Below the pieces are notes generated by a model. That model searched no databases. It saw only the letters and a program-made list of their open reading frames with translations, and was not told where the DNA came from. A DNA stretch of 37,286 bases, taken from the NCBI RefSeq assembly GCF_003334815.1, contig NZ_QOWO01000036.1; one strand, written 5' to 3'. Each line of letters starts with the position of its first letter. Position 1 is the first letter of the stretch. This DNA comes from Escherichia coli. Its GTDB lineage: Bacteria > Pseudomonadota > Gammaproteobacteria > Enterobacterales > Enterobacteriaceae. Below, one piece after another: positions 27,790 to 29,882 of the stretch. A program made the translations under genes and the position numbers.

Positions 27790-28778
27790 TCTTTGTCCTC
27801 TGCTTTCATTAAAACGGCGCGCTCGGTTCTGACTAACAATTTTCCCTGCATCAGAAGCGCAAAAGTACGGATGAGCAGTATTGCAATAATAAAATTGGTA
27901 AAGATAAACAGCGGCACCGCCAGCGTATGGAAAAATCCATTATCGCTGCCACTCCCCAGATGCAAACCGGTGGTTGCCAGTGCAGATACGCCGAACGAGA
28001 AACTCCAGAATGAAGCATTAAATGGCTGGGAGAGATACCATGGCATCAGACGTAGCATAAACAGCAGTTGCAGCAGTCCATAACCGAAAAGCATTTTCGC
28101 CAGCGTGTCACCCTCGCCGCCGTTGACGCTCAGCCAGGCACTACAAGCCACCAGCGCAGGAGCGAGCTGAATGCCGAGTGATGTCCGCAGTGCCGTGGGT
28201 AATTCTCCCGAACTGCGCAGACGCTGCAAGATCACCGGTTCAAGGCTTAGCCATGAGAAAACGCCTGCGCCTAAAAACACCAGACCGGCGTCGGTGTAGC
28301 CCAACGCACCACAGGCCATTGCGCTGATAAAGTTGTTGGCAACTGTCGGCAGATACAGTCCAGGCGTGGTAGCTTCTTCAGGGTGAGATCCGCGCCATAA
28401 TCCCGCAGTTTGCCAGGCGGCATAAGCCAACTGAACCACGACACCAAAACTGAACAGGCACACCGCCAGTGGGCGAAACCACGGAACAAAACCAATCGCC
28501 ACCAGCATCGTCGTTGCCGGAAACAAACTCACAAAACTGCTCAGCACTGGATGGCGAACTTCCGCCAGCACGCTATGCGGAAAGCGTATGAGTCGGGCAA
28601 TAAATGCGCTAGTCAATAATCCCCAGATGATCATCGCCAGAATCACCAGCCCATCCCCTAACCAGTGGCTGACCTGCCAAACCTGGCTGGCATAGCGCCA
28701 GGCAAATCCCATCCCTATCGTCCCCAACACAATACCAAAGTAGCCTGCCGGCAAATTGAGCACTTTATCGCTCTGCAT
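27786..28778 (-). CDS. tehA: Tellurite resistance protein TehA (SLAC1/TDT-family membrane channel)
   Basis: ATG at 28778 giving 330 aa ([19 protein letters not shown]...), multi-pass membrane protein. The ORF track extends 36 codons upstream; an ATG at 28790 is also possible. Confidence 0.85.
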
Positions 28779-28901
28779 CTTCTTACTCATTTTGTTTAAT
28801 TTATAAAGTATATTTGAAATGCATTTTATGGAATTTTCTCGAGCATAGCCAGAGCCGCAGAATTTGCTACGGTTATAGTAAGTCACCTGTGGGAAAACGC
28901 T

Positions 28902-29882
28902 ATGCGCAAATATCGTCTAAGTGAAGAACAGCGAGCCTTTAGTTATCAGGAAGATGGCACTAAAAAAAATGTGTTATTACGGCAGATTATCGCCATTAGC
29001 GATTTTAACGATGTGATAGCAGGAACCGCTGGCGGCTGGATCGATCGCGAAACGGTGTTAGCACAAGAAGGAAATTGCTGGATTTACGACCAGAATGCTA
29101 TTGCGTTCGGCGGAGCGGTGATTTCCGGTAATACGCGTATCACCGGCACCAGCGTGCTGTGGGGAGAGGTTTACGCAACGGATAACGTCTGGATCGATAA
29201 TAGTGAAATCAGCCAGGGTGCATATATAAGTGACAGCGTCACCATTCATGACTCATTAGTTTACGGGCAATGTAGAATATTTGGTCACGCCTTAATTGAT
29301 CAACATTCTATGATCGTCGCCGCACAAGGCTTAACGCCCGACCATCAACTCCTGCTCCAAATTTATGATCGCGCAAGGGTTAGCGCCTCGCGTATTGTCC
29401 ACCAGGCACAAATTTATGGCGATGCCGTCGTCCGGTATGCTTTTATTGAACATCGCGCCGAAGTTTTTGATTTTGCCAGTATTGAAGGTAATGAAGAGAA
29501 CAATGTCTGGCTATGCGATTGCGCTAAAGTCTACGGTCACGCGCAGGTGAAAGCTGGCATAGAAGAAGATGCCATTCCGACGATTCATTACAGTTCGCAG
29601 GTGGCGGAATATGCCATTGTGGAAGGTAATTGTGTGTTAAAACATCATGTCTTGGTTGGCGGAAATGCCGTGGTACGTGGCGGACCGATTCTGCTCGACG
29701 AGCACGTTGTCATACAAGGTGAGAGCCGTATTACAGGTGCGGTGATAATTGAAAACCATGTGGAGTTAACCGACCACGCCGTCGTTGAAGCCTTTGATGG
29801 CGACACGGTTCATGTCCGTGGTCCAAAAGTCATTAACGGCGAGGAGCGCATTACGCGAACGCCGCTGGCAGGGTTATTGTGA
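28902..29882 (+). CDS. ydcK: Uncharacterized protein with repetitive beta-helix-like segments
   Basis: 326 aa; repeated short G/V/I-rich periodic segments; ATG at 28902. Confidence 0.8.

Follow-up and report, generated by a model that had tools for sequence, protein, structure and literature searches.

The convergent 9-bp overlap of ydcK and rimL in Escherichia coli is an ordinary in-register overlap of two gene ends

Background

Convergent genes that share coding nucleotides at their 3' ends form a common class. Published censuses of E. coli count 58 or 75 convergent CDS overlaps (Lillo & Krakauer 2007, PMC2174442; Huvet & Stumpf 2014, PMC4161906), and one phase, 123:321, accounts for 21% of all convergent overlaps and for 33% of those of at least 5 nt (PMC2174442). 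It was stated in 2007 that the terminators of convergently overlapping genes must sit within the CDS of the partner; a rho-independent terminator is predicted in only 20% of the convergently overlapping genes of E. coli, and a stop-codon-mutation model fits convergent overlaps generally (PMC2174442). The ydcK-rimL pair is one of these 58-75 E. coli pairs. Like the other phase 123:321 pairs (PMC2174442, PMC4161906) it has a short overlap of shared 3' ends, each stop codon is complementary to a TTA, CTA or TCA sense codon, and any terminator would fall inside the partner gene. We found two real genes on opposite strands whose 3' ends, both stops included, share nucleotides in register. The modal overlap of the class is 4 bp (TTAA, CTAG, etc.) whereas that of ydcK-rimL is 9 bp; otherwise nothing essential differs.

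Other described systems concern the transcripts. Convergent excludons are opposite-strand neighbours with overlapping transcripts. ExcludonFinder (Sanmartin et al. 2025, PMC12288877) gives 165 of them that recur in at least 50% of 58 MG1655 RNA-seq samples, this exact pair included. The defining property of an excludon, however, is mutually exclusive expression, brought about by interference or RNase III, and the bulk RNA and rnc-mutant data on ydcK-rimL do not suggest it. Rho suppression of antisense and read-through transcription (PMC7815308, citing Peters et al. 2012) ends untranslated C-rich antisense RNA in a bicyclomycin-sensitive manner at least ~100 nt past the translation stop. The locus is alike in this respect, but the ending is documented in one direction only and at low positional resolution. 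In bidirectional or collision terminators (10.1101/2022.10.23.513370, building on Ju et al. 2019) both convergent transcripts likewise end in a tiny space, but ydcK-rimL lacks an A/U-flanked intergenic stem-loop and a conserved hairpin, and leaves no intergenic space whatever.

The overlap is therefore real, ordinary and already known. It stands in the K-12 reference annotation, the terminator argument that applies to it dates from 2007 (PMC2174442), and the excludon listing dates from 2025 (PMC12288877). Its significance beyond bookkeeping is slight, and we offer three modest additions, namely the mutual lock of the two stops, the split of E. coli between two junction alleles, and the documented ending of the rimL transcript by Rho.

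Results and discussion

The junction

We analysed a stretch of 37,286 nt of E. coli DNA, henceforth referred to as the window. It carries ydcK on the + strand at 28902..29882 (b1428 in MG1655; 326 aa, a putative left-handed beta-helix acyltransferase) and rimL on the - strand at 29874..30413 (b1427 in MG1655; 179 aa, the ribosomal protein L12 serine N-acetyltransferase), the low end of rimL being 29874 and its annotated start 30413. The acetylated form of L12 is L7. The two are unrelated housekeeping or accessory genes.

Their 3' coding ends have 9 bp in common, TTATTGTGA, which occupy both strands of 29874..29882. The feature was defined from the sequence and the ORF translations and was followed through relatives and E. 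coli allele counts. On the + strand, YdcK ends in ...TPLAGLL*, and its last codons TTA TTG TGA (Leu-Leu-stop) are the shared ones. On the - strand, RimL ends in ...ARIIDSQ*, and the shared codons are the last three, TCA CAA TAA (Ser-Gln-stop). Each stop faces its complement: TAA of rimL lies opposite the Leu codon TTA of ydcK, and TGA of ydcK opposite the Ser codon TCA of rimL. Codon boundaries of the two genes coincide throughout the overlap, which is phase 123:321.

Positions 28651-30951 of the window are a perfect reverse complement of 1498400-1500700 in E. coli K-12 MG1655. The reference annotation of that genome places rimL at 1498938-1499477 (+) and ydcK at 1499469-1500449 (-), with the identical 9-bp overlap, and the PGAP annotation of further RefSeq E. 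coli strains agrees. An earlier note on this DNA had described an overlap of 9 bp that includes both stop codons, and the sequence, both ORFs and the MG1655 annotation bear this out.

We consider it likely that ydcK-rimL is an ordinary in-register tail-to-tail overlap that is passively held, and that read-through is a tolerated by-product ended by Rho. Such an overlap probably arose in a tightly abutting convergent pair, when one stop shifted to the next in-frame stop. It would then have been kept passively, each stop being the reverse complement of a sense codon of the partner (TTA, CTA or TCA).

Two stop codons that lock each other

We scanned for YdcK in one genome per species and obtained 39 loci; 37 species-level loci carry both genes. 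Both ydcK and rimL are thus conserved across Enterobacteriaceae. The genes are convergent and nearly touching in all 37 of these loci, across many genera, with spacings between an overlap of 9 bp and a gap of 22 bp. Exactly 9 bp are shared in 31 of the 37 species-level relatives, down to 54% YdcK identity. This 9-bp group includes Escherichia coli, E. albertii, E. whittamii and the cryptic clades, 13 Citrobacter, Enterobacter, Superficieibacter electus, Pluralibacter gergoviae, Yokenella, Trabulsiella and unnamed Enterobacteriaceae. The length is shared but the letters are not: nine different 9-mers are found among these loci (TTATTGTGA, CTATTGTGA, TTATTCTGA, TTACTCTGA, TCACTCTGA, TCACTCTAA, TCACTGTGA, TCACGTTGA and TCACTTTGA).

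The variation is confined in a specific way. TTA, CTA and TCA are the sole sense codons complementary to the stops TAA, TAG and TGA. Across the 9-bp loci (n = 31), ydcK codon -2 is only ever TTA, CTA or TCA, and rimL codon -2 (n = 31) is only ever TCA or TTA. Overlap positions 3, 7 and 9 are invariant because the two stop codons require them. The tail of rimL varies in length beside an unchanged 9 bp, ending in IIDSQ* in Escherichia and in IIDCASE* in Citrobacter.

In the window, stop loss would add 35 codons to RimL and 6 to YdcK, and the overlap would be held because losing either stop would lengthen a protein. The simplest reading of these patterns is a mutual lock, in which each stop is kept for the sake of its own gene and thereby restricts a codon of the partner to a stop complement. 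Read in this way, the junction is a clear case of two stops locking each other across genera.

The loci outside the 9-bp group are arranged otherwise. In more distant genera the stops abut (0 bp; Cedecea and Dryocola), the genes overlap by the classic 4 bp, TTAA (strain RIT693), or a gap of 22 bp separates them (a Buttiauxella MAG). In these, YdcK ends in GVF*, and its codon -2 is not a stop complement. In one Superficieibacter an earlier rimL stop leaves a 3-bp gap. A Pluralibacter MAG (3473-3481) is the only ydcK locus that has no rimL downstream, so that convergent apposition is kept in 37 of 38 ydcK loci. Its codon -2 is TCG, not a stop complement; this would fit release from the constraint that the rimL stop imposes, in what is a single MAG contig that may be misassembled. 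The outgroup arrangements (0 bp, 4 bp and a 22-bp gap), set against the 9 bp of the ingroup, would fit an origin by stop shift, with both gain and loss of the longer overlap possible.

Two junction alleles in E. coli, and loss of either gene

We counted junction alleles with allele-specific 32-nt searches over 5,426 complete E. coli genomes. The K-12 allele TTATTGTGA, with its 9-bp overlap and a RimL of 179 aa, is present in 3,363 genomes (62%). A second allele, TTATTATGA, reduces the overlap to 6 bp and is present in 1,925 (35%). This split between a 9-bp and a 6-bp overlap is a new detail. The two alleles differ at window position 29879 (G), where the change is synonymous in ydcK (TTG -> TTA) and nonsense in rimL (CAA -> TAA), with loss of Gln179. 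In the 6-bp carriers G3/10 and an O121 strain, rimL is annotated as a normal gene of 178 aa. Judged by this comparison, the 6-bp form is derived, because all other Escherichia species have TTG. To judge from the genomes surveyed, overlap length as such is not under selection, because 35% of E. coli carry the 6-bp form and one Superficieibacter has a 3-bp gap.

The 6-bp allele was considered as the source of the PGAP "internal stop" flag on rimL of O157:H7, and this was ruled out by a separate lesion. In the O157:H7 strain Rafaela_II, rimL has a TGG->TGA nonsense change at codon 99 (...EIGY*LDESH; equivalent to window 30117-30119), and the annotation marks it as a pseudogene. This nonsense codon, searched as an exact 33-mer, occurs in 295 complete genomes, and all serotype-labelled matches among those listed are O157:H7. 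rimL thus appears to be inactivated across the O157:H7 lineage.

Disruption of ydcK was also observed. The gene is split by IS1A (IS1) in strain TUM12357 and is only partial in strain LHM10-1, which suggests that ydcK is dispensable. On the evidence of these alleles (the O157:H7 rimL nonsense codon and the TUM12357 ydcK IS1 insertion), each gene is dispensable in some lineages.

Among the complete genomes, 2-5 records labelled plasmid also match the junction; they are probably replicons with a wrong label, or pieces of chromosome.

Read-through and its ending by Rho

The earlier note had argued that neither gene has room for a terminator of its own, so that each transcript must enter the partner. 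This holds: both stops lie within 9 bp, with no hairpin and U-tract embedded. With neither intergenic DNA nor an embedded intrinsic terminator in its way, a polymerase leaving either gene would run into the other in antisense. Published data agree with such read-through: both genes have antisense reads, the rimL strand has a Rho region, ydcK yields dsRNA, and the pair is listed as an excludon. The untranslated, C-rich antisense RNA would be ended by Rho within about one to a few hundred nucleotides. This ending is documented on the rimL strand and is presumed on the ydcK strand.

On the rimL strand, a Rho termination region is reported at MG1655 1499587 (+) and classed as antisense to ydcK (Adams et al. 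2021, PMC7815308, Supplementary file 2). Its Rho score is 4.31 (p 1.5e-8), and the position is approximate since the score was computed on 800-nt windows (PMC7815308). Counts upstream and downstream of it are 82/20 without bicyclomycin and 137/144 with bicyclomycin (PMC7815308). The site corresponds to window position 29764 (-), 110 nt past the rimL stop and inside ydcK. The rimL read-through RNA, antisense to the 3' end of ydcK, therefore covers approximately 29764..29873 (-). Both a bicyclomycin-sensitive drop and a C-rich, G-poor untranslated stretch, the marks of Rho action, are found on this strand. The tables of the same study hold no Term-seq 3' end for rimL or ydcK and no Rho region on the ydcK strand (PMC7815308), and the SMRT-Cappable-seq supplements mention neither gene. 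What these data document for the end of the rimL transcript is Rho and not intrinsic termination.

In E. coli the C/G ratio of the rimL read-through RNA is 1.5-1.9 in 100-nt bins from +100 to +300 past the stop, and reaches 2.4 in 60-nt windows. Across genera the ratio is 1.33, modestly above an antisense background of 1.15 +/- 0.12. A conserved rut element was ruled out, since C/G enrichment, strong in E. coli, exceeds that background only slightly across genera. Rho sensitivity here looks generic, with no dedicated element; clearance by Rho would be generic because antisense RNA is generically C-rich.

Published read counts allow a rough estimate of how far transcription extends in each direction. 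In the wild type, rimL has 35.9 RPM sense and 9.2 RPM antisense, and ydcK has 66.1 RPM sense and 5.0 RPM antisense (Huang et al. 2020, PMC7373196, Table S1c). We computed from these values a sense density of ~0.066-0.067 RPM per nt for each gene. The antisense signal would be roughly equivalent to ~75 nt of full-density read-through into ydcK and ~136 nt into rimL. We place the ydcK read-through RNA, antisense to the 3' end of rimL, at 29883..30020 (+), an estimated extent that includes a hairpin found only in E. coli at 29969-30003. Capture with p19 yielded 133-221 RPM of dsRNA from ydcK in 4 of 6 libraries, per-gene values that are similar to those of like-sized neighbours (PMC7373196). The p19 dsRNA cluster tables hold no coordinate-level entry near the junction. 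From the substantial ydcK dsRNA we conclude that duplexes do form.

Transcription upstream of rimL was also seen in these datasets. ydcH lies on the same strand as rimL, 62 bp away, and its sense RNA density is ~3.7x that of rimL (PMC7373196). A "primary" Term-seq 3' end is recorded at window position 30474 (-), upstream of rimL and 2 nt past the ydcH stop at 30476-30478 (PMC7815308, Supplementary file 1). Much of ydcH transcription seems to end, or to be processed, before rimL.

Is the pair a functional excludon?

The earlier note had added that the overlap allows antisense interference. The transcript overlap stands, on published antisense reads and the Rho region; of actual interference, RNase III mutant data show no sign. 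The reading to be weighed is that of a functional convergent excludon, in which polymerase collision and/or RNase III would bring about mutual repression, the two genes would be expressed reciprocally, and their apposition would be conserved for that purpose. We regard this as unlikely.

Several observations nevertheless speak for it. Published data document the overlap of the two transcripts in vivo, and the pair is in the ExcludonFinder list (PMC12288877). dsRNA was captured from ydcK, and the antisense/sense ratio of rimL, ~25%, is above that of most neighbouring genes. Tight convergent apposition is conserved in 37 of 38 ydcK loci, and excludon pairs are reported in the literature to be more syntenic than other neighbours. 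Given the tight apposition in 37 of 37 loci and this excludon synteny, selection may act on the transcriptional overlap.

Other points speak against it. From the way the method works, we infer that the ExcludonFinder criterion is nearly automatic for overlapping CDSs once both are expressed. In bulk wild-type RNA, rimL and ydcK are co-expressed, at equal low density. In rnc-14 and rnc-38 mutants the sense RNA of both genes falls (PMC7373196); neither rises in either mutant. These data give no sign of RNase III-mediated decay, relief from which would predict a rise in sense RNA. Overlap length varies freely, among E. coli genomes (9 or 6 bp) as well as from genus to genus, and we found no conserved RNA structure. 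RimL and YdcK have no known functional link, and either gene can be lost, rimL as a pseudogene across O157:H7 and ydcK through an IS1 insertion in another strain. A more specific version holds that the near-zero spacing, shared across Enterobacteriaceae, was selected for reciprocal expression, coupling RimL acetylation of L12 to the acyltransferase activity of YdcK; we consider this quite improbable.

Were the pair a true excludon, the 6-bp allele and the O157:H7 rimL pseudogene would be natural perturbations of the switch. If this were proven, ydcK-rimL would make a small model pair, with natural alleles, for interference between weakly expressed convergent genes. Under the passive reading that we prefer, the short 3' sense/antisense overlap would be tolerated as a by-product, both genes being weakly expressed, rather than serve as a dedicated means of regulation.

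Terminators and hairpins at the junction

True transcript overlap would be minimal if a bidirectional intrinsic terminator, or a programmed head-on collision of polymerases at an embedded stem-loop, ended both transcripts at the junction. Collision-assisted bidirectional termination has been described for convergent pairs and needs a stem-loop in the nascent RNA (Wang et al. 2022, 10.1101/2022.10.23.513370). E. coli does have two candidate hairpins. One lies at 29866-29835 (-), just past the rimL stop, with ~-15 kcal/mol, and is followed by UUAAUGACUUUUGG. The other lies at 29969-30003 (+), with -18 kcal/mol. Neither has a U-tract, however, and both fail the terminator scan.

A scan for the intrinsic terminator consensus found none at the junction, and no hairpin with a U-tract is embedded at either 3' end. 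The arrangement expected of a bidirectional intrinsic terminator, a G+C-rich stem-loop with an A-tract and a U-tract between the genes, is absent from the junction. The folding energy of both flanks is no better than that of shuffled sequence (z = 0.02 and -0.34), and the hairpins are not conserved across genera. With RNAalifold over 18-19 genera, the rimL read-through side keeps only an invariant GC stem of 4 bp with covariation essentially absent, and the ydcK read-through has no conserved structure. Neither rimL nor ydcK has a Term-seq 3' end in the published tables, and the signal reported there responds to bicyclomycin and is hence due to Rho. The weak expression of both genes should also make frequent collisions unlikely. 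The consensus scan, the hairpins without U-tracts and the RNAalifold results rule out an intrinsic or bidirectional terminator at the junction, and we hold this whole reading, programmed collision included, to be very improbable.

A known RNA family at the junction was likewise ruled out. An Rfam scan of 28800-30800 (E<=1) found no junction element, and its single match, a spurious lncRNA, lies outside the junction.

The hairpin at 29969-30003 is a near-perfect inverted repeat with 17-nt arms, inside the rimL codons for ...SNQVALRNG.... The repeat is weaker in E. albertii and absent from other genera, and it is probably fortuitous.

Both gene ends

Salmonella orthologues of both proteins have crystal structures. 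For RimL, residues 1-178 align to residues 1-178 of 1Z9U (179 aa), and 1S7K also aligns over 1-178. For YdcK, residues 1-325 align to 1-325 of 2F9C, which ends in ...TRTPLVGS plus one residue. Mis-set gene ends can in general create short overlaps, and a natural 6-bp variant exists, but the idea that one gene ends earlier or that one ORF is not a gene has almost no chance of being right and was ruled out by the ORFs, by the structures of the orthologues and by conservation: where a stop codon lies is no choice of annotation, both frames are open up to their stops, both orthologue structures match within one residue of the C-terminus, and the stop positions are kept across genera. The earlier note had named corrected gene ends as a way in which the overlap might disappear, and no corrected stop removes it, the frames being open to the stops and the Salmonella structures matching to the C-terminus. 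By full-length alignment to these structures and by the conservation of the stops, both gene ends are real.
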